From Nitrospirota bacterium (GTDB taxonomy: Bacteria; Nitrospirota; Thermodesulfovibrionia; Thermodesulfovibrionales; Dissulfurispiraceae), in NCBI GenBank assembly GCA_040754455.1, contig JBFMCP010000012.1:1-27167 (forward strand): a DNA stretch of 27,167 bases, written 5' to 3'. Below are positions 3,872 through 26,778 of the stretch, in pieces. The first letter of the stretch is position 1. Every line of letters starts with the position of its first letter. The position numbers and the translations under genes were made by a program. Below the pieces are notes generated by a model. That model was not told the DNA's origin. It did no database searches and was given only the letters and a program-made list of their open reading frames with translations.

Positions 3872-5122
3872 TTAGGAGACCCAGGAGATTCTGTCCTTGC
3901 CGGTCTGTTTTGCCTTGTAGAGACCTTCGTCCGCTCTTTTTATGATCGACTCCACTGAGCTATCGCGCTCGTGCATCGAAGCGATCCCGAGACTTATCGT
4001 GACTGGTATCTTGACGGTATTGAGGACGCTGCCAGCCAGCCGCTCTTTTACTAGAAGGCGTATACGTTCGGCATAATGGATGGTCTCGTTAAAATCCGTA
4101 TCAGGGAGTATGATAAGGAACTCCTCACCGCCATAACGGCCAACGAAGTCGTAGGAGCGCATGGAGCTTCTGATAGTCACAGCGACTTCCTTCAGGACCT
4201 CATCACCAAAGAGATGGCCGAATTCATCATTAAGCCGCTTGAAATTATCGATATCGATAAGAAGACAACAGAGGTCTTTTCCGAGCCGTTTGCTGCGCTC
4301 GAATTCCTCCCTGAAACGGGAGAGGATGTATCTTCTGTTGAAGAGGCCGGTCAGATCATCGGTGATTGCCAGTTCCTCTATCCTCTTCCTGCACTCGGCG
4401 CTCTTATTGCTCAGTCTATTGGTGAAAAACTGGATAATCCCCAGAGTAATTAAGAAGCTCACCAGCGCAAAGGAAATGATGATCATGGTGTTCTTTTTTT
4501 GCAGTTTCAGCAAGTCTTGAATCTCGAACATCACGCTGATACCGCCCCGCACGTCACCGAGTTTATACCCGTCAGGGTGGCATTGCAGGCAGGGCTTTTC
4601 GATGTAGAGCGGCGCCATGTATCTGAAGTAGGTCTTATTGTTGACGGTAACATTTTGATATACCTCTTTTTCACCATGCTCAAAGAGCGCGAGCGCTCGT
4701 CTTTCGAACGCATCAGGCATATTTGCCTTGTTATCGGGGTTGAGGAGTCGCAGGCTTGTAATATGGAATTTGAAGAGGCCCTCTTTTTCAGCAAGCACCG
4801 AGAGCTCACGGGTCATCGGGGTGGGCTTTTTCACCGTAAAAATCCGCCCGTCCACGGCTGTAATATCGGGGTTTTTCAGATAGGGGTTTGATGCAACCCC
4901 CTCTTTTTTTTCCACATAAACCCCATTGTAGCTGAAATTCCATTTTCTCATAATGACAATGCTCTTGAAGATCGTTCGCGCTTCTGATAAGGCCTGCTCA
5001 TGAATGAGCCTCTCATTGCCGTAGTTCATAATGGCAAAAATAATGGTGAGGATCAGCACAAAAGCGAAACTGACGGTAATGATGAAATTTCTATAGATGT
5101 GCTTTTCACCAAATAAATCCAT
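3872..5122 (-). CDS. membrane diguanylate cyclase with periplasmic DUF3365 (Tll0287-like) c-type heme domain
   Basis: Two TM helices flanking a periplasmic region with CLQCH and GDVRGGIS; DDLTGLFNRR, RxxD I-site (RSYD), GGEEF. Start could be 5122, 5134 or 5158. Confidence 0.92.
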   Translation of the reverse strand: MDLFGEKHIYRNFIITVSFAFVLILTIIFAIMNYGNERLIHEQALSEARTIFKSIVIMRKWNFSYNGVYVEKKEGVASNPYLKNPDITAVDGRIFTVKKPTPMTRELSVLAEKEGLFKFHITSLRLLNPDNKANMPDAFERRALALFEHGEKEVYQNVTVNNKTYFRYMAPLYIEKPCLQCHPDGYKLGDVRGGISVMFEIQDLLKLQKKNTMIIISFALVSFLITLGIIQFFTNRLSNKSAECRKRIEELAITDDLTGLFNRRYILSRFREEFERSKRLGKDLCCLLIDIDNFKRLNDEFGHLFGDEVLKEVAVTIRSSMRSYDFVGRYGGEEFLIILPDTDFNETIHYAERIRLLVKERLAGSVLNTVKIPVTISLGIASMHERDSSVESIIKRADEGLYKAKQTGKDRISWVS

Positions 5123-5250
5123 ATTACGCCTCATAAAAGTGCCGCCTGAAAGCAGCATAAACCACGCTCTCCCCTCACGAGGGCAATTAATTGTTTTTTA
5201 AAAGATTACAAAGAGAAACCACAATTTCGAGGCCCGTGCAGCCTGTTATT

Positions 5251-12649: not shown

Positions 12650-14797
12650 TTATCTCGTGCTGTGTGTTTCCAGCAACGCAATGAACTCTTCTGCGGGCAG
12701 AGGTGCGCTGAAAATGTTTCCCTGGATCTCATCACAGTTGTGCAATCTCAGGAACTCGAGCTGTTCTTCTGACTCCACTCCTTCTGCGAGGACCCTGAGC
12801 TTGAGCGTATGGGCGAGCCCGATCACTGCAGCGACAATGGCCTGGTAGTCGGCGTCACGGGTGAGGTCCTTAATGAAAGACTGGTCGATTTTGATTTTAT
12901 GAAGCGGCAGCTGCTTCAGGTAGCTCAGTGCGGAATAGCCGGTGCCGAAATCATCTATGGCCACATGAATACCCATACCGATCAGTGCCGCGAGGGTACG
13001 GGCGGTGAGCTCGGTATCATGCATAGCAATGGTCTCGGTGATCTCAATGCTCAGCAATTTCGGGTCAGCGCCTGTAGTACTGAGCACGTCGGCGACCAAT
13101 CGGGCAACATTGCCATGCTGGAACTGTCGGGCCGAAAGGTTCACCGAGATGCAGGGCGACGCCAGGCCCTTTCTGCTCCACTCCATTATCTGTGAGCAGA
13201 CCGTGCGCAGCATCCACTCATCGATTTTCGTGATGAGCCCGGTCTCCTCGGCAGTGGGGATGAATTGTTTGGGCTTGAGCAGCCCGAGCTCGGGATGCTG
13301 CCAGCGCACCAGCGCTTCGGCACAGACGATCTGCCGGGTGCTTATATCGATCTGGGGCTGGTAGTGCACGACCAGCTCGCCGCGATCAATGGATTCACGG
13401 AGCCGGTTCTCGAGCAGGAGTCTCTCGATAGTGCGCAGGTTCAGTGCAGCATCAAAGAACTGGAAGTTGTTTCTTCCCTCCTCCTTGGCATGGTACATGG
13501 CAATATCGGCGTTCTTCAGCAGAAGGTCAGGGACGCGGCCATCATGGGGATACATACTGATGCCGATACTGGCAGTGATGTGGAGTGTTTGGTGATCAAT
13601 CGTGAAGGGCTCCTGAAAGAGCGCAAGAATTTTTTCAGCGATATGCACTGTATCATCAGTATGGGCGATAAGCGGCAGGATCATGGTGAATTCATCCGCT
13701 CCGATGCGTGCCAGTGTATCGTTTTCTCGGATACAGGTGCTCAGACGTTCGGCCACCTGCCGTATGAGGCGGTCTCCGGCGGCATGCCCCAGGGAGTCAT
13801 TGATCTGTTTAAAGCGGTCCAGGTCAATAAAGAATACGGCAAGCATTCTCCCCAGACGCTTGGCCTGGGCGGTCTCAAAATCGAGCCGGTCCATGAAGAG
13901 CGCTTTATTGGGAAGTCCGGTAAGCGGATCGTAGTAGGTTTGCTGCCTGATGATCTCCTGTGCCTGCTCCCGCTCAATGATTTCAGCCCGTAACTGCTCG
14001 TTGATCCGCTTCAGATCGGATGTTCTTTCAGCAACGAGCTTTTCGAGCTGATTGCGGTGATTCCTGAGCTCGGCTTCGACCCGCTGTTTTGCATCGATCT
14101 CTGCCAGGAGCTTTCGGTTCAATTCCTCGGTTTCTTCTGTGGTGCATTGCAGGCGGTCGATCATCTGAATATTTTCGAACCTGAGCAGCAGCGATGTCCT
14201 GTTGACCTGGTAATTGTACTGGGAAACTTTCCAGAGAAGGAAGCCGAACAGAAAGATCATCCCCCCCATGGCGTAATGGAATTGATCACCTGCAAGGAGA
14301 AACCGCATGCCGAGCGGCACCAGTGCTGGAATGCTGTAGGCGAGATATCCCTCTTTCCGTGCTGAGAAGGTTGCCGCTGCTCCTGCCGCCATGCCGCCCA
14401 GCACAAAGGCGAGGAATACCCGGTGGGCAAGAGAAACTGCGGAAAAGGGGAGAAGACCGATACTTCCCCATGCTGCACCGGTGAGCGCCAGTCCGGCGAT
14501 GAAACGCTTTCCCCATATGCGTGCATCTGCCGGCGTGACCCTGGTGCTCCGATACTTCAGCACAAGAGCAATTCTGAGCATGGTAATGCTTACGATTGCG
14601 GCAAACCATGCAGCGAGCATGCGATAGGGCATTTCTCCCTGCATGATAAAAAAGACGAGGGTTGCATTAACAAGTGTCGCAATAAACCCCAAAGGCGACA
14701 GAGTATAAAGCTGCCGGACCTGCTCGGTAAGGATCTCCTCATTATGATCCTTCTGATTTTTTGGTGGGCTGATGTCGGCCATATGCTTGTGGAGCAT
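12650..14797 (-). CDS. membrane-bound GGDEF-EAL c-di-GMP turnover protein
   Basis: Several N-terminal TM helices, coiled coil, DPLTGLPN, GADEF, EAL (AEALVRW), DDFGTGYS, AEGVE; start 14797 or 14782. Confidence 0.92.
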   Translation of the reverse strand: MLHKHMADISPPKNQKDHNEEILTEQVRQLYTLSPLGFIATLVNATLVFFIMQGEMPYRMLAAWFAAIVSITMLRIALVLKYRSTRVTPADARIWGKRFIAGLALTGAAWGSIGLLPFSAVSLAHRVFLAFVLGGMAAGAAATFSARKEGYLAYSIPALVPLGMRFLLAGDQFHYAMGGMIFLFGFLLWKVSQYNYQVNRTSLLLRFENIQMIDRLQCTTEETEELNRKLLAEIDAKQRVEAELRNHRNQLEKLVAERTSDLKRINEQLRAEIIEREQAQEIIRQQTYYDPLTGLPNKALFMDRLDFETAQAKRLGRMLAVFFIDLDRFKQINDSLGHAAGDRLIRQVAERLSTCIRENDTLARIGADEFTMILPLIAHTDDTVHIAEKILALFQEPFTIDHQTLHITASIGISMYPHDGRVPDLLLKNADIAMYHAKEEGRNNFQFFDAALNLRTIERLLLENRLRESIDRGELVVHYQPQIDISTRQIVCAEALVRWQHPELGLLKPKQFIPTAEETGLITKIDEWMLRTVCSQIMEWSRKGLASPCISVNLSARQFQHGNVARLVADVLSTTGADPKLLSIEITETIAMHDTELTARTLAALIGMGIHVAIDDFGTGYSALSYLKQLPLHKIKIDQSFIKDLTRDADYQAIVAAVIGLAHTLKLRVLAEGVESEEQLEFLRLHNCDEIQGNIFSAPLPAEEFIALLETHSTR

Positions 14798-14944
14798 CGC
14801 GGTGTGTCTGCCCCCCGCTGTTGTGTCCCTCGGTAAAGAGCGGGCACGCTGGAGGTGATTAGAGCAGATGCTCTCTTTAATTGTACCAGGTCCCAGCAGT
14901 TTTAAAAACAATCACCTGTGGGTCCAAAAAGAGAATACAGGCAA

Positions 14945-17258: not shown

Positions 17259-17762
17259 ATGGTAATTAAAAGGTATGTAGTGGTGGTTATTGCAACATTG
17301 ATGGTCGCGCTTGGGATTGTTGACGGTGCCCGCGCTGCTCAACACGATGACAGAGATGCACTCAAAGGCATCAGGACCGGCAAGGCGATTTTTGATGTCA
17401 ATACCGGAGAGCCCGATAAACTGGTGCTGTATCTCGATGTGATTAAGGAGACCATCCAGGGGCTCAGAAAACAAAAAGTGCGGCCCGACGTTATTATTGC
17501 GTTCAGGGGCGTATCGGTCAGGCTTATTACAACATCGCAGGAAGATGCGGAGCAAGGAAAGCGGGAGGTCTTCGAGAAGATCAGAAAGCTGATCGCTGAA
17601 TTGAAAGCGCTGGGAGTGAAACTGGAGGCCTGCTCTATAGCGACGCGGCTCTTTGAAGTGGAGAACAACACAGTTCTGCCGGAAATAAAGGTGGTCGGCA
17701 ACACTTTTATTTCCCTCATTGGCTACCAGAGCATGGGGTACGCAGTCATTCCTATTATGTAG
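17259..17762 (+). CDS. exported DsrE/DsrF-like protein
   Basis: SD caggagg, signal peptide, KAIFDV, IAFRG, GVKLEACSIA, VGNTFISLIGYQSMGYA. Confidence 0.8.
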   Translation: MVIKRYVVVVIATLMVALGIVDGARAAQHDDRDALKGIRTGKAIFDVNTGEPDKLVLYLDVIKETIQGLRKQKVRPDVIIAFRGVSVRLITTSQEDAEQGKREVFEKIRKLIAELKALGVKLEACSIATRLFEVENNTVLPEIKVVGNTFISLIGYQSMGYAVIPIM

Positions 17763-21407: not shown

Positions 21408-23102
21408 TTATGTGCTCCGTCTGAGCGGAAAATAGAGGGTAAAGGTGGTGCCTTTTTCGGCCGAGCTTTCGGCGGTGATAAAGCCGCCGTGGTCTTCCAT
21501 GATCTTCTTGCTGATAGGGAGCCCGAGCCCGATTCCCCGTTCGGCAACCTTTGTAGTGTAGAAGGGCTCGAATATCTTGTCCAGTTTATCTGCCGGGATG
21601 ATTTCACCGGTGTTGTTGAGGGCTACCGCCACGAAAGGCTCTCCCTTGAATTCCACGTGGGCTGTGCTGACGGTCAGCGTTCCGCCAGCCGGCATGGCGT
21701 CGACGGCATTCGATACAATGTTGAGAACGACCTCTCGCGAACGTCTTTTATCGATAAGGATATCCGCGGTATACCCATACGACCTTCGGACGGCTATCGA
21801 CCGCTGTTGAAACACCTCCTCATATATATCCAGGACGTCATCGATCATTTCGTGGATGCGGTGTTTTCCCAGCTGCAGGGTTGTTGCCCTGGCATAGGAG
21901 ACAATATCCTTGAGGATTTCTTCCAGCCTGCTCACCTCGGTGATGATAAAGTCGGCATACTCCCGCTCCTGTGTCTCCTCAGGCGTCCGCCTTTGCAATC
22001 TCCGTGCAAAGCCCCCCACTACGGTGAGCGGGTTCCTGATCTCGTGCGCGACATTTGCCGAGATTCTGCCGAGGGCCGCGAGCTTTTCCGTCTGGGTAAG
22101 ACGTTCGATGAGCTTCTTCCGCTCGGACTCGATCTGATAGCGCTTGATGATGATCGCGAGGGTATGGGCGACTGCACGGAAAAAGATCTCTTCCTGGGGC
22201 TTTGATCCGGGCCATTCTTTTGCAAAAACACTGATCAGCCCGAGTATCTTCTCCCCCTCATGGATAGGGACGCAGTAGTGCATGAAGGAGTCGCTCTTTT
22301 TGTAGATCATCTCGTAGGGCGCATCAGGATTCCCCGTATGCGTGATCTCACATTGCAAACCGCTTACCCTTTCCTGTCGCTCGCAGGCAGCGTCCGTTGC
22401 CTCAAGAGGCACCCTGGTTTCCTGAACGGAAGAATCCTGAGCTTCCGGTAAGCCGCGCCGTGCTTTAAGAACGTACTTTTTGGAAACGTCATCAAAGAGA
22501 TAAATCAAACCTTTGGGTTCGAGTGAGGGATCAGGAATGGAGATGATTAATTCAAGCGAGCGGTCGAGCTGCTCATCCAGGGAGACCGGCTCGAGCGCGA
22601 TCTTGAGGATGGTGCTAATGATCCGCTGGACGTGGTAATCGAACTCGATCTGTTCTTCGGCGCGGACCCGTTCGGTGATATCACGGATTGCTGCGGTAAC
22701 GAGCACCTCGCTGTCAATAAGCAGAGGGCTCAGGCTTATATCGGCCCTGAATTCGGTGCCGTCTTTTTTCAGGCCGTAGATCTTGAGTCCCGTTCCCATC
22801 GGACGTGTCCGGGGAAGTGCGAAGAACCGGGCGAGGTTCTCTCTATGGCGAGCACGGAACCGCTCCGGGATCAGCATCTGCAGGTCCTTGCCGATCAGCT
22901 CCTCACGCGAGTAGCCGAACAGCTTTTCCATCTGCTTGTTGACCATGGCGATTCTGCCGCCTTTCTCCACAAAAATCATGGCATCAGGCGCCGCTTCGAT
23001 GAGCTTCTGAGACAGCTCCTGGAAATCCTTGCCATACGCTGCGGGCACCTCAATGGTCTCTGTCGTATGGTGTCCTTCGGGCATACCAACGTGATTTCCC
23101 AT
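21408..23102 (-). CDS. cytoplasmic PAS-GAF sensor histidine kinase (NtrB-like)
   Basis: PAS (APDAMI...LFGYSREELIG), GAF-like middle, H-box AHEIRNPL, N-box NAVDA, IFEPFYTTK, GIGLGL; SD aaggag. Confidence 0.92.
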   Translation of the reverse strand: MGNHVGMPEGHHTTETIEVPAAYGKDFQELSQKLIEAAPDAMIFVEKGGRIAMVNKQMEKLFGYSREELIGKDLQMLIPERFRARHRENLARFFALPRTRPMGTGLKIYGLKKDGTEFRADISLSPLLIDSEVLVTAAIRDITERVRAEEQIEFDYHVQRIISTILKIALEPVSLDEQLDRSLELIISIPDPSLEPKGLIYLFDDVSKKYVLKARRGLPEAQDSSVQETRVPLEATDAACERQERVSGLQCEITHTGNPDAPYEMIYKKSDSFMHYCVPIHEGEKILGLISVFAKEWPGSKPQEEIFFRAVAHTLAIIIKRYQIESERKKLIERLTQTEKLAALGRISANVAHEIRNPLTVVGGFARRLQRRTPEETQEREYADFIITEVSRLEEILKDIVSYARATTLQLGKHRIHEMIDDVLDIYEEVFQQRSIAVRRSYGYTADILIDKRRSREVVLNIVSNAVDAMPAGGTLTVSTAHVEFKGEPFVAVALNNTGEIIPADKLDKIFEPFYTTKVAERGIGLGLPISKKIMEDHGGFITAESSAEKGTTFTLYFPLRRST

Positions 23103-23317
23103 GGCTTTTACTCCTTATAAAAATAATATCACGGAAACTTTGTACATTTCCGGCTTTCTTCCTTTTCTGTTTGAGCATTGATAACACTGTTCCAAAACAC
23201 TGCGAGGGGAAAGGACTCTCATTGCGTTATATGCTCTCCTTTTCTTCCACCTTGAACGCAAGTAGATTACCTGCTACATATGAAGTAAAGACCCAGGAGA
23301 AACGAAAGGAGGAGAAT

Positions 23318-23710
23318 ATGGAGTTTTCGAAGTTCATAAATATAGTGAGAGATCGTGCACACATCGCAACGGATACAGAGGCCGAAACAGCCTGTTGCGC
23401 CACGCTCAAAGCCCTTGCAGAGCGTATCTCGGGAGACAAAGCTCAGGCCCTGGCGGATCGGGTGCCCACGGAGTTCGCGGAGTGTCTGAGGGAAGAGCAG
23501 TATGGCCAGCAGTTCGGCCTCAAAGAATTTTACCAGCGTGTGGCAGACCGTGAGGGGGTCAGTCCCGACGTCGCTGCGGAGCACGTCCGCGCGGTTATCG
23601 ACGTGGTGAAGGAAACGCTCTCCGCCAATGAGGTTATGGACATTATGTCGGAGCTGCCGGTTGAGTATGACGAGCTTTTTGCGATATCACGGGTGGAGGC
23701 GGTGAAATAG
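23318..23710 (+). CDS. DUF2267-family protein
   Basis: SD aggagg, MEFSKFINIVRDRA, ATLKALAERI, EFYQRVADREG, HVRAVIDVV, LPVEYDELF. Confidence 0.85.
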   Translation: MEFSKFINIVRDRAHIATDTEAETACCATLKALAERISGDKAQALADRVPTEFAECLREEQYGQQFGLKEFYQRVADREGVSPDVAAEHVRAVIDVVKETLSANEVMDIMSELPVEYDELFAISRVEAVK

Positions 23711-23760: not shown

Positions 23761-23789
23761 TTGACAGCACTGGCCCGAAGCACTATGAT
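23761..23789 (+). promoter_or_regulatory. strong sigma70 promoter
   Basis: TTGACA, 17 bp, TATGAT upstream of the IF2-like gene. Confidence 0.75.
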
Positions 23790-23852
23790 GTGATTAAGAT
23801 TTATTTGTTCGGTTTCGCATAAAAACCTTGGCCTGGATCATAGGGTGCGGCT

Positions 23853-24554
23853 ATGCCCAAGACCATGAAAAAGCCGGCAGTACCCAAGATTTTAGAGCAA
23901 AAGAAAAAGCCGAAGCTCGAGATCGTGCTCAAATGCGATTCCGTGGGAAGCGTGGAGGCGGTCACCAACAGTATCGAAAAGTTGACCACGCCTGATGTGG
24001 ATATAAGTGTTATTCACAGCGGTGTGGGCGATATCAGCACATCCGATGTGCTCTTTGCAGAGACGGCGAGCAGGTTCATTGTCGGATTTCAGGTCGGCGT
24101 AATGCCGAAGATGGATAGAGTGGTGCGGGAACACAGAGTCGAGGTCCGCCTTTATAATGTGATCTACCAACTGTTGGCCGATATCAAGGATATTGCCGGA
24201 AAATTGGTTCCTCAAGAGCCGGAGGAGCAGATCATCGGCTCCGGTAAGATCATCGCCCTTTTCAAAAGTGCCCGGAAGGGAATCATTATCGGATGCCAGG
24301 TTCAGGAGGGCTTTCTTGCAGTGGGCGAACGCTTCCGCATCATCTCCGCAATGGGCCCTGTGTATACCGGCACGATAGAGTCGCTCCATAGAGGGGAATC
24401 GGCGGTACAAAAAGCAACACCGGGTCAGCAGGTCGGTATACGCATAAAGGATTTCAAAAACGTGAAGATAGGAGACCTCGTCGAGAGCTTTCGCCCTCCG
24501 GCCCCGGTGAAGACTCGCGCCTGGGAGCCTTCAGGCCACATTATCAGGAAATGA
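23853..24554 (+). CDS. stand-alone IF2 C-terminal (C1+C2) domain protein with no G domain
   Basis: Collinear with the IF2 C-terminus: IVLKCDSVGSVEA, SGVGDI..SDV, IVGFQV, YNVIY.L, IIG, FKS...IIGCQV.EG, G.IESLHR, GDLVESF. Confidence 0.88.
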   Translation: MPKTMKKPAVPKILEQKKKPKLEIVLKCDSVGSVEAVTNSIEKLTTPDVDISVIHSGVGDISTSDVLFAETASRFIVGFQVGVMPKMDRVVREHRVEVRLYNVIYQLLADIKDIAGKLVPQEPEEQIIGSGKIIALFKSARKGIIIGCQVQEGFLAVGERFRIISAMGPVYTGTIESLHRGESAVQKATPGQQVGIRIKDFKNVKIGDLVESFRPPAPVKTRAWEPSGHIIRK

Positions 24555-24680
24555 TCGTACAAAAATAACGTTATCTACTGTTTTTTTCGCGCCAGGAATG
24601 CTTCAACACGTGCAATATCTTCTTTGAGCTCTCTGAGGTTTTCTTCATCTTTTCTCACCTGGCTGCCGGCGAAGGTCAGC

Positions 24681-25253
24681 TCATTGTGTCTTGTAGTGTG
24701 ATGCCTTGCTTGTCCATTCGTTTTCAGGGAATCGTTTTCGGAGTAACTCATACGCCTCTCTCAGGGCCATCTCGTCTCTGGAATGCTGGTATTTGTAGAA
24801 CCCGCGGCAGTAGATGGCCTCAGGGGTCGAGGTGCCCTCGGGACAGTCTGAAATGATTCTGTCGAGCAAGAGCAATGCGCCTTTGAGCTTGCCTTTGTCG
24901 AAATGGATTTTCACAATCCCGAGTATTAGTGTGGAAATAAGGTCCTCCGGTGAATGAAAGCCACTTGCCTGGTGGTACTGTTTTCTGCTGCTGTCGATGA
25001 TGATGAAGGCAGGTGTGCCCGTTATCTTCAAGTACAGCGAGGGGGGCAGTCTATCGGAGAGCACGCGCAGGGCAACAAAGTTATGATTGATGAAGTCGAT
25101 GACCCGCTCATCGGTATAAGTGGTTGCCTCCATCTGGGCGCAAAATGTGCACTCAGGATCGCAGATCTCGATGACGATCGGCTTTTGTGCCGTCTCAGAC
25201 TCCTGCAGGGCCGTCTCAACGTCGGTGTGCCAGAATATACCTCCGCTCCTCAT
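24681..25253 (-). CDS. thioredoxin-fold protein (CxxC) with C-terminal TPR-like helices
   Basis: SD ggagg, W.TDVETAL...KPIVIE..DPECTFCAQME..TY, cis-Pro GTP, PEAIY..G, FPENEWT. Confidence 0.82.
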   Translation of the reverse strand: MRSGGIFWHTDVETALQESETAQKPIVIEICDPECTFCAQMEATTYTDERVIDFINHNFVALRVLSDRLPPSLYLKITGTPAFIIIDSSRKQYHQASGFHSPEDLISTLILGIVKIHFDKGKLKGALLLLDRIISDCPEGTSTPEAIYCRGFYKYQHSRDEMALREAYELLRKRFPENEWTSKASHYKTQ

Positions 25254-25378
25254 AGCTTTGCCTCCCCCTGAGATAATCGTCGAGAGAACATGTGAAAATC
25301 CTGTTCCCTTTGTGATGACATCTATCTCCCTGCTGTCGTGAGCAGGACGTGCTTCCAAGTATGCAGTCGCTGAAAAAG

Positions 25379-25692: not shown

Positions 25693-26778
25693 ATGATGCA
25701 GCTCATTAAAGTAACAGTAGTGATCGGTGCGATCATAGTGACCTCCTTTCTTGCCGCCGATGCTGCGAAGCTCGAACAAGCTGTTTTTGCAGGCGGCTGC
25801 TTTTGGTGCATGGAGCCCCCCTTTGAGAAGCTCGAAGGGGTAAAGGAGGTGATTTCGGGCTATACCGGCGGCCACAAAAAGAATCCCACCTATGAGGAGG
25901 TATCCGCAGGGAAGACAGGCCATGTCGAAGCGGTACGGGTGCTATACGATCCTTCAAAAGTCACGTATGAGAAGCTCCTCGACGTATTCTGGCGCCAGAT
26001 TGATCCCACCGACGACGGTGGACAATTTGTCGATCGGGGACTGCAGTATCGTTCCGCGATTTTCTATTTCACCCCACTCCAGAAAACACTTGCCGAGAAG
26101 TCGAAGAATGCGCTGCAGCGGTCGGGCCGCTTCAAAAAGCCGATTGTCACCGAGATCCTTCCTGCCGGAGTGTTCTATCCTGCGGAGGAATACCATCAGG
26201 ACTATCACAAGAAGCATTCTATCAAGTACAAATTCTACCGGTTCAACTCAGGACGCGACCGATTCCTGAAAAAAGTCTGGGGCTCCGAAAGGGAATTGCA
26301 AGGACCCGGAGCTCCGGTCTCCGGAGAGAGATGGAGGACATTCGTGAAACCGTCAAAGGAAGAGCTGAAAAGAAGACTGATGCCGCTGCAGTACAAGGTG
26401 ACCCAGGAGGAGGGCACCGAACCGGCCTTTAAGAACGAATATTGGGATAACAAACGGGAGGGTATCTATGTCGATATCGTCTCCGGCGAGCCGCTTTTCA
26501 GTTCGCTCGATAAGTACGATTCGGGAACCGGCTGGCCGAGCTTTACGAAGCCGCTTGAGCCCGGGAACATCGTCGAGCGGGAGGACCGTAAGTTTTTCAT
26601 AAAGAGGACCGAAGTGAGGAGCAAACACGGTGATTCGCATCTCGGGCATGTCTTCAAAGACGGGCCGAAGCCCACAGGACTCCGGTACTGCATGAACTCC
26701 GCAGCCCTGCGGTTTATCCCGAAAGAGGATCTCGAGAAAGAGGGCTACGGAGCATACCTGAAGCTCTTCAAGAAGTAG
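25693..26778 (+). CDS. msrAB: bifunctional methionine sulfoxide reductase MsrA/MsrB with signal peptide
   Basis: Msr[21 protein letters not shown]; Msr[34 protein letters not shown]-terminal hydrophobic signal; SD aggaggag. Confidence 0.95.

Follow-up and report, generated by a model that had tools for sequence, protein, structure and literature searches.

The window analyzed here, a 27,167-nucleotide stretch of DNA from a Nitrospirota bacterium (contig JBFMCP010000012.1), carries a small gene whose 233-residue product corresponds to only the last two domains, C1 and C2, of bacterial translation initiation factor IF2. The gene belongs to a conserved family whose C2 barrel has exchanged the residues that recognize formylmethionine (fMet) on the initiator tRNA for another conserved set. 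We tentatively favor, at a probability of roughly 0.4, the reading that it is a functional, separately transcribed IF2 paralog that keeps only C1 and C2 and would act as a GTP-independent, RNA-binding accessory factor in translation. Its features are given below in positions of the whole window; E. coli IF2 numbering is the residue number of the small protein plus 667, from a gap-free alignment.

23761..23789, + strand: putative sigma-70-type promoter, TTGACA-17-TATGAT, agreeing with the consensus at 11 of 12 positions
23790..23852, + strand: presumed 5′ leader, holding a TAA at 23820-23822 and a purine-rich, Shine–Dalgarno-like AGGGTG at 23842-23847
23853..24554, + strand: coding sequence of the stand-alone IF2 C1+C2 paralog, 233 aa; intact open reading frame (ORF) starting with ATG, stop codon included
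23853..23912, + strand: Lys-rich N-terminal tail, residues 1-20, disordered in the structural model, with a predicted local distance difference test score (pLDDT) of 48-55
23913..24212, + strand: C1 domain (IF2 domain III), residues 21-120, PF11987; includes Y105, the equivalent of E. coli Y772
24222..24494, + strand: C2 β-barrel (IF2 domain IV), residues 124-214, basic; PF14578 and PF03144
24387..24398, + strand: codons 179-182 (H-R-G-E), equivalent to E. coli R846-R847-F848-K849 in the β4–β5 loop that cradles fMet
24429..24437, + strand: codons 193-195 (Q-V-G), equivalent to E. coli E860-C861-G862
24495..24551, + strand: family-specific segment PPAPVKTRAWEPSGHIIRK, residues 215-233, a basic stretch with WxPxG followed by a final strand

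Domain content and predicted fold

The Pfam model for C1 (IF-2, PF11987) matches residues 14-112 with an E-value of 1.1e-29 and 103 bits against a cut-off of 27. The C2 barrel is recognized by GTP_EFTU_D4 (PF14578) at residues 139-207, where the score of 24.5 bits is barely over the cut-off of 23.8, and GTP_EFTU_D2 (PF03144) remains under its cut-off (20.8 versus 30.3 bits). The NCBIfam equivalog model for IF-2, TIGR00487, aligns over only model positions 379-578 of 587 and reaches 160.1 bits against a cut-off of 424.4. The small protein is therefore not an IF2 by the whole-protein standard of TIGR00487, but it is a C1 domain followed by a C2 barrel, the content that the earlier note on this DNA had proposed from the sequence alone. 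Residues 21-214 align without gaps to residues 688-881 of the 890-residue E. coli IF2 (PDB sequences), which bears out the match to the IF2 tail seen by eye in that note, and the letters at F804, F809, I812, C815 and S844 agree with the E. coli numbering. Two PDB chains of isolated fragments, 1z9b_A (C1) and 1d1n_A (C-2), align to residues 14-112 and 124-213, respectively.

Neither the GTP-binding domain (PF00009) nor domain II (PF22042) was found by Pfam in the small ORF. When three whole Nitrospirota IF2 sequences were searched against the window with tblastn, the sole match was 23913-24491, with no remnant of a G domain or domain II, as the earlier note had also concluded. An AlphaFold2 model built from a 57-sequence family alignment has a mean pLDDT of 89.0 and a predicted template modeling score of 0.59, and the best Foldseek matches to it in the PDB are the IF2 chains 9a4o_A, 7unv_x and 3jcj_f, together with mitochondrial IF2.

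A conserved family under purifying selection

A length-restricted protein search returned 1092 matches. The best 120 of these share 59-100% identity with the window protein, are 215-321 aa long and come from Nitrospirota, Thermodesulfovibrionales and Dissulfurispiraceae; those that are named are called 'hypothetical protein' or 'IF-2'. We also scanned 1.84 billion representatives exhaustively and without a profile. Every match at the level of the family (165-259 bits) was 167-281 aa long, the first long protein to appear was a canonical IF2 (853 aa, 153 bits, 38% identity), and there was no fused form carrying the family-type C terminus. Sequence-feature clusters with 54, 207 and 74 members (~226-244 aa) independently show the same taxa.

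A scan of one genome per species found at least 80 loci, the matches listed comprising 22 small-gene loci and 58 others. The small-gene loci, at least 22 in other species, are 46-72% identical to the window protein, with the alignment reaching residue 214-233; those listed come from Nitrospirota (13), from Syntrophobacteraceae or Desulfobulbaceae (8, by title) and from two metagenome-assembled genomes loosely named 'Proteobacteria' and 'Deltaproteobacteria'. At all 22 the gene is a short open frame of 231-324 codons that is shut by an upstream stop, and tblastn detected no G-domain or domain II similarity within ~6 kb at any of them. The remaining 58 listed loci are only 32-40% identical, and the 19 examined are canonical infB genes with open frames of 736-977 aa, unless cut by a contig end. 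The family is old and conserved, and it occurs in anaerobic Nitrospirota (Thermodesulfovibrio-like lineages), Syntrophobacteraceae and Desulfobulbaceae.

The ratio of nonsynonymous to synonymous substitution (dN/dS, Nei–Gojobori) is 0.11-0.35 in 11 pairs, which were chosen as the closest relatives inside subclades plus the window gene against its three nearest; six of the 11 ratios are rough because dS exceeds 1 in those pairs. The small gene evolves under purifying selection.

With tblastn, phages and plasmids returned canonical-level matches only, at 37% identity or less, and many of the records are really chromosomal. Phage record OQ572408.1 and others, as well as plasmid-labeled records of 2-5 Mb, hold a canonical host infB and look like misfiled chromosomal sequence. 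Other short proteins named 'IF-2' start with Met and have the canonical KRFK/ECG pocket, among them P0221, P0240 and P0248 (210-227 aa) and an Atlas cluster whose 112 members are 212 aa long; these may be infB fragments created by contig ends or gene callers, or independent G-less forms in other phyla. PADLOC gave no anti-phage defense match for the small gene and its two neighbors at E-values up to 0.01. No paper on the family was found in a literature search with most subscription journals outside its coverage, and the passages of a 2026 preprint on IF2 extensions that a term search reaches hold nothing on a G-less paralog.

The fMet-A76 pocket

According to the available passages of Sprink et al. 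2016 (PMC4783127), the pocket of E. coli IF2 that receives fMet-A76 is formed by S844, R846, R847, F848 and K849, by F804, F809, I812 and C815, and by E860, C861 and G862, with R847 and F848 cradling fMet. The R847G substitution by itself strongly reduces the affinity of E. coli IF2 for fMet-tRNA, as reported in the part of PMC8709274 available to us. We compared these positions in 156 family members and 117 canonical IF2 proteins. The scaffold of the pocket is retained: F804 is present in 155/156 family members and 114/117 canonical proteins, C815 in 153 and 104, S844 in 150 and 96, and G862 in every protein of both sets, while I812 is invariant in the family and found in 62/117 canonical proteins, with V in a further 52. 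Y772 (window Y105), which in the same passages lies near the sarcin–ricin loop in 70S-bound IF2 (PMC4783127), is likewise kept, in 154/156 and 113/117.

The recognition residues, by contrast, differ throughout. The position of R846 is H in 146/156 family members and K or R in 115/117 canonical proteins. At R847 the family has I (118), V (20) or R (8 of 156), whereas R is present in 101/117 canonical proteins; at F848 it has G (100) or E (32), against F in 77/117; and at K849 it has a mixture of E, D, Q, N and K, with K in only 20/156 compared with 102/117. The E860 position is Q in 112/156 and E in 18 (canonical E, 111/117), and that of C861 is V in 97, A in 51 and C in 3 (canonical C, 117/117). 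F809, a hydrophobic position in canonical proteins, is K in 133/156, and R832, which is Arg in 99% of canonical IF2, has become Ser in the family. The comparison indicates that the acceptor-end pocket has been rebuilt, its scaffold being retained and its recognition residues exchanged for another conserved set.

At the positions of R847, F848, K849, E860 and C861 the window protein has R, G, E, Q and V, and its motif SLHRGESAVQKATPGQQVG stands against the canonical ESLRRFKDDV..ECG. The earlier note had described this change and had counted 'SLxR' among the features kept. The altered motif stands, but the arginine of the window's 'SLHR' is an exception within the family because that position is Ile in 118/156 members and Arg in only 8. 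The window protein carries all of the family signature (K142, S165, H179, I180, Q193, V/A194 and WxPxG) except that residue 180 is R.

Charge, tails and the added segment

The median isoelectric point (pI) of the C2 barrel is 9.38 in the 156 family members and 5.58 in the 117 canonical proteins, whereas that of C1 is essentially unchanged (4.97 versus 4.82). Whole family members have a median pI of 9.2, and the window protein has one of 9.54. Several acidic positions are basic in the family, including E854, which is replaced by K, and positions 132 and 203.

Both tails noticed in the earlier note are real features of the protein: eight Lys fall within residues 1-21, and 19 residues follow the barrel, the median for the family, compared with a median of 6 in canonical IF2. 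Residues 7-16 are disordered in the AlphaFold2 model. Across 134 family N-tails the median length is 19 aa, with 29% K/R/H and 7% D/E, and in 60 of the 134 at least three of residues 2-8 are H, K or R. Many members begin with MxHKHK, MGHKHSRHKRKK or similar (for example, L003:1632, L007:5965, L008:424 and L012:2433), and a His/Lys-rich N-terminal run is also found in proteins P0123, P0126, P0128, P0131 and P0132; the window tail is a Lys-rich version without His. Such a run could bind metal or RNA.

The C-terminal segment of ~15 residues is marked by W224 (97% of the 156 members), P226 (96%) and G228 (94%), and the WxPxG columns are empty in all 117 canonical proteins. It is modeled with a pLDDT of 75-94 and a strand at residues 230-232. 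The Trp is present at 21 of the 22 small-gene loci, the exception being L016, where the segment is missing. L016:5908-6600, P0135 and P0156 are divergent members that have the changed pocket (I or M at 180, Q193 and V194) but no WxPxG, so the segment is not universal in the family.

Relationship to the canonical IF2 of the same lineages

We computed a quick, unrooted IQ-TREE phylogeny (LG+C20+F+G4, no archaeal outgroup) of 105 rows. The family side has 37 rows (the window protein, 22 loci and 14 representatives). The canonical side has 68 C termini, taken from 19 loci and from alternate members of a set of 98 full-length representatives; the tree excludes the 49 remaining full-length sequences and any match under 550 aa. 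The two sets lie on opposite sides of a single branch with a Shimodaira–Hasegawa-like approximate likelihood ratio test (SH-aLRT) value of 100 and are ~1.9 changes per site apart, and Nitrospirota's own IF2 (L068, L076 and L080) falls within the canonical group. The window protein groups with L001 and L002 (support 98), within a Nitrospirota subclade (96), within the family (100), and all Syntrophobacteraceae rows are in a second, weakly supported family group (81). Because the tree is unrooted, it names neither the donor nor the date of the family.

The window protein is 31-36% identical to the C termini of 120 Nitrospirota IF2 proteins. The canonical Nitrospirota infB is whole by Pfam (IF2_N, GTP_EFTU, EF-G_D2, IF-2 and D2), and at L068 and L080 it lies in the gene row infB-DUF503-rbfA-DHH, with truB next in L068. 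Related Nitrospirota, Ca. Sulfobium included, encode a whole IF2 (746-829 aa) in which both C1 and C2 are present, and the genus Ca. Sulfobium has a canonical IF2 as well as the small gene (L011). By assembly prefix, no assembly is common to the 58 canonical and 22 small-gene loci among the matches listed, and the main text and three supplement files of the Ca. Sulfobium paper (PMC5812927) do not mention initiation factors. The canonical IF2 of these lineages retains R847, E860 and C861 in 120/120 sequences, and the small protein is therefore not compensating for a degenerate IF2. The proposal of a diverged paralog rather than a broken infB is supported by the separate clade, by the same-length genes and dN/dS ratios described above, and by the lack of an adjoining G-domain gene at any of the 23 loci (window plus 22).

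Promoter, leader and genomic neighborhood

The frame of the small gene is shut 5′ of its ATG by the in-frame TAA of the leader, and 142 bp separate the ORF from the stop (23710) of a complete DUF2267 gene (23171..23710), the spacing given in the earlier note. That note had also credited the gene with its own near-consensus promoter. The 11/12 match is not significant by itself, because shuffled sequence yields a mean of 1.5 such sites where one was observed in 1.7 kb. An aligned TTGnnn-17-TAnnAT site is nevertheless present at 8 of 9 related loci examined (it is absent in L009), and this recurring −35/−10 pair supports a dedicated promoter for the small gene. Rfam has no family match in the presumed leader. 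At the closest genome relatives, L001 (5955-6010) and L002 (5945-6000), TTGACA-17-TATGAT stops 6 nt 5′ of the small-gene ATG, so that the mRNA there would be leaderless. The window has AAG (23796) in the place of this ATG, and its own start codon lies 57 nt downstream, past the in-frame TAA.

The window contains ordinary chromosomal genes: a 23S end, 5S rRNA, a radical SAM protein, GGDEF and EAL enzymes, HrpB, UvrD, a PAS kinase and MsrAB. It begins at the end of an rRNA operon, as positions 1-88 hold the final 88 nt of a 23S rRNA gene and 171-287 a complete 5S rRNA gene (Rfam, 97.5 bits); these were the only Rfam matches over the window, and no tRNA genes were found. No infB lies within the 27 kb and none of rimP, nusA or rbfA is nearby, in keeping with the earlier note's placement of the gene outside the infB operon. 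G+C content is uniform (0.48-0.56), the flanks are continuous and there is no anomaly of composition. Signaling genes are dense, with a Tll0287-like GGDEF cyclase at 3875-5158, a GGDEF-EAL protein at 12653-14911 and a PAS histidine kinase at 21411-23102, whose end is 69 bp away from the divergent DUF2267 gene. The neighbors of the small gene are DUF2267, the PAS histidine kinase, a thioredoxin-like gene (24681-25358) and a fused MsrA-MsrB gene (25693-26778). On the opposite strand, a 58-aa ORF without a Pfam match (24575-24751, −) lies between the small and thioredoxin-like genes; its frame differs from that of the thioredoxin-like ORF, whose 3′ end it overlaps, and it may not be a gene.

A Pfam scan of 127 flanking ORFs at the 23 loci revealed no neighbor common to the family. 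Several themes recur at a few loci each. MsrAB or MsrB is near the small gene in the window, L004 (4465-5031) and L006 (3119-4255), and AhpC in L021 and L022. A DsrE-like gene is upstream in L005 (5325-5711), L006 and L015 (5369-5854), with another in the window at 17259-17762, and at L005 and L006 the gene directly downstream, in the same orientation, encodes a pyridine-nucleotide disulfide oxidoreductase. These redox and sulfur genes, MsrAB and the thioredoxin-like gene among them, were seen at Nitrospirota loci. In Syntrophobacteraceae, a NIL-domain ferredoxin beside Rrf2 is directly upstream on the same strand (L019:5347-5766, L021:5177-5596 and L022:5272-5691), and L018 has Rrf2 without the NIL-ferredoxin. 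At other Syntrophobacteraceae loci, L017 (4157-5272) and L018 (4755-5831), that directly upstream, same-strand position is taken by MnmA, a tRNA 2-thiouridylase, which in L018 overlaps the small gene's longest open frame. Other neighbors are a DEAD-box helicase (L001-L003), RNase R (L008) and an RRM protein (L007). These themes may reflect the shared ancestry of related genomes, and we draw no conclusion from them.

Possible roles of the small protein

The kept scaffold of the pocket and its new conserved residues speak for a ligand resembling that of IF2, a tRNA 3′ or aminoacyl end, though not fMet-A76 itself. In the reading that we favor, the C2 barrel would hold a tRNA 3′ end, or an aminoacyl end other than fMet-A76, and the basic tails and basic C2 would stand in for the G domain and domain II, through which IF2 is anchored to the ribosome; a normal infB would be expected elsewhere in a small-gene genome. 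The ligand and the role are inferred from sequence features, which suggest that fMet is not recognized in the manner of IF2. For reference, domain IV of IF2 touches uL16, H89 and H71 in the passages of PMC4783127 available to us. Several points weigh against this reading. The same source describes binding of IF2 to the 30S subunit through domains I-III jointly, so a protein with only domains III-IV may bind weakly. An equally good interpretation of the changed pocket is that it binds no tRNA end at all. Fast evolution could account for part of the long branch in a quick, unrooted tree, a full-length infB alongside the small gene is seen at genus level only (Ca. Sulfobium), and with no conserved neighbor in 23 loci the context points to no partner.

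A different role at the ribosome, which we consider rather unlikely but worth weighing first, is that of a competitor or silencer without a tRNA ligand. The protein would occupy the large-subunit site of IF2 domains III-IV (sarcin–ricin loop, H89, H71 and uL16) and, like hibernation or anti-association factors, act as a brake on initiation or subunit joining during stress. The retention of Y772, the basic character of the C2 barrel and both tails, and the stress and redox neighbors (MsrAB, thioredoxin-like and AhpC) are in line with such a role, and the loss of the fMet-specific residues would fit a tRNA-free function. However, Y772 is conserved in canonical IF2 too and may be structural, and each neighbor theme occurs in only 2-3 of 23 loci, in related genomes. 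The maintenance of the scaffold together with the new set H179, Q193 and K142 suggests that the pocket has a ligand and has not been abandoned.

It is more doubtful that C1-C2 has been co-opted outside translation as a protein- or small-molecule-binding module, for example in sulfur, redox or methionine metabolism. The variable context, with no translation operon nearby, and the recurrence of DsrE-like, disulfide oxidoreductase, Rrf2 plus NIL-ferredoxin and MsrAB neighbors would suit this idea. But no neighbor association is general, genes acting on RNA recur as well (the DEAD-box helicase, MnmA, RNase R and the RRM protein), and the basic charge and retained translation-factor barrel scaffold point to RNA.

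The earlier note had suggested that the protein might sequester or protect initiator tRNA, which would mean that the canonical C2 site still binds fMet-tRNA. The C2 fold and pocket scaffold are present, the window protein has an Arg equivalent to R847, though few relatives do, and Spurio and colleagues reportedly found in 2000 that the isolated C domain of IF2 binds fMet-tRNA. The suggestion is nonetheless disfavored by the family-wide comparison and improbable: R847 is replaced by Ile or Val in 138/156 members and F848 by Gly or Glu in 132, K849 remains Lys in 20, and E860 and C861 are kept in only 18 and 3, while the lineages' own canonical IF2 keeps R847, E860 and C861 throughout. In E. coli IF2, R847G alone strongly reduces fMet-tRNA binding (PMC8709274).

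About as improbable is the idea that the rebuilt pocket reads a different initiator end, such as an unformylated or oxidized methionyl-tRNA, making the protein a GTP-independent initiation helper or checkpoint in anaerobic sulfate-reducing lineages. The methionine-sulfoxide reductase, thioredoxin-like and NIL-domain genes near several loci, and the leaderless-looking mRNA of L001 and L002, may connect to this idea.

We regard it as very improbable that, as the earlier note had raised among its refuting outcomes, the protein is the C-terminal half of a split IF2 that assembles with a G-domain protein encoded elsewhere, since there is no G-domain gene in the 27-kb window or within ~6 kb at the 22 loci, related Nitrospirota including the genus of L011 have a whole IF2, the fMet pocket that a working IF2 requires is gone, and the family is a separate clade rather than the local IF2 C terminus. 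Finally, duplication debris, a pseudogene or an assembly artifact, which the earlier note had tied to missing same-length homologs, neutral dN/dS or an assembly break upstream, is refuted: nothing except the truncated architecture suggests it, and the frame is intact, same-length homologs occur in two phyla with dN/dS of 0.11-0.35, the family-specific additions are conserved, GC is uniform, and the flanks are continuous, upstream through the complete DUF2267 gene.

Significance

All bacteria have IF2, and work on it has treated it as one multidomain GTPase. Within this very well known family the small protein stands as a new variant in both architecture and function, as yet without a name or a study of its own, and it is probably a new accessory factor rather than a broken IF2 copy. 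A natural protein consisting of only the tRNA-facing half of IF2 would be a new type of player in bacterial initiation or ribosome control, and the family amounts to a natural experiment in which domains III-IV operate without the GTPase. It is well suited to biochemistry, with ~230 aa, a high-confidence fold and hundreds of members. Were the altered-initiator idea true, part of the job of IF2 would have been spun off as a free module with a new specificity. The database name 'IF-2' for the small proteins misleads genome annotation and marker-gene counts.

Comparison with known systems

The closest known counterpart is domains III-IV of bacterial IF2 (InfB; E. coli 688-881; 3JCJ, 7UNV, 1Z9B and 1D1N), which have the same two folds in the same order at 31-39% identity. 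The small protein keeps the scaffold residues F804, I812, C815, S844 and G862, as well as Y772. It differs in having no N-terminal region, G domain or domain II, in the replacement of the fMet-A76 recognition residues, in a C2 that is basic rather than acidic, in the added WxPxG segment and His/Lys-rich N-tail, and in its location outside the infB operon. The IF2-beta and IF2-gamma forms of E. coli arise from internal starts in infB, lose only N-terminal parts, keep the G domain and coexist with the full-length protein, whereas the small protein is encoded by a separate gene without a G domain.

The IF2 C domain and C-2 fragments of Geobacillus stearothermophilus have the same domain content as a free polypeptide, and such isolated C-terminal fragments were reportedly found by Guenneugues in 2000 to bind fMet-tRNA. 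Those fragments were engineered in the laboratory for mapping fMet-tRNA binding and have the canonical pocket; the small protein is the product of a natural gene and has a changed one. Domains III-IV of aIF5B/eIF5B have homologous folds, and NCBIfam aIF-2 models match the small protein with E-values of 1e-12 to 4e-18, but the relationship is far more distant (Foldseek matches 1g7s, 7yyp and 4n3g, 16-24% identity). These factors are always fused to a G domain, and in the available text of PMC4783127 a rigid helix joins domain IV.

Pbp11 of the Thermococcales, as far as the available part of PMC9540759 describes it, is a stand-alone barrel of the elongation-factor type whose binding to tRNA depends on its N-terminal part. 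It is no useful relative of the small protein, as its model NF041207 scores 15.9 bits over residues 125-213 against a cut-off of 100, and it differs in being archaeal, in its size of 11 kDa, in having no C1 and in binding the proteasome. By analogy, Pbp11 may nonetheless serve as a precedent for the way of working proposed here, in which a small free barrel would be combined with N-terminal tRNA binding.

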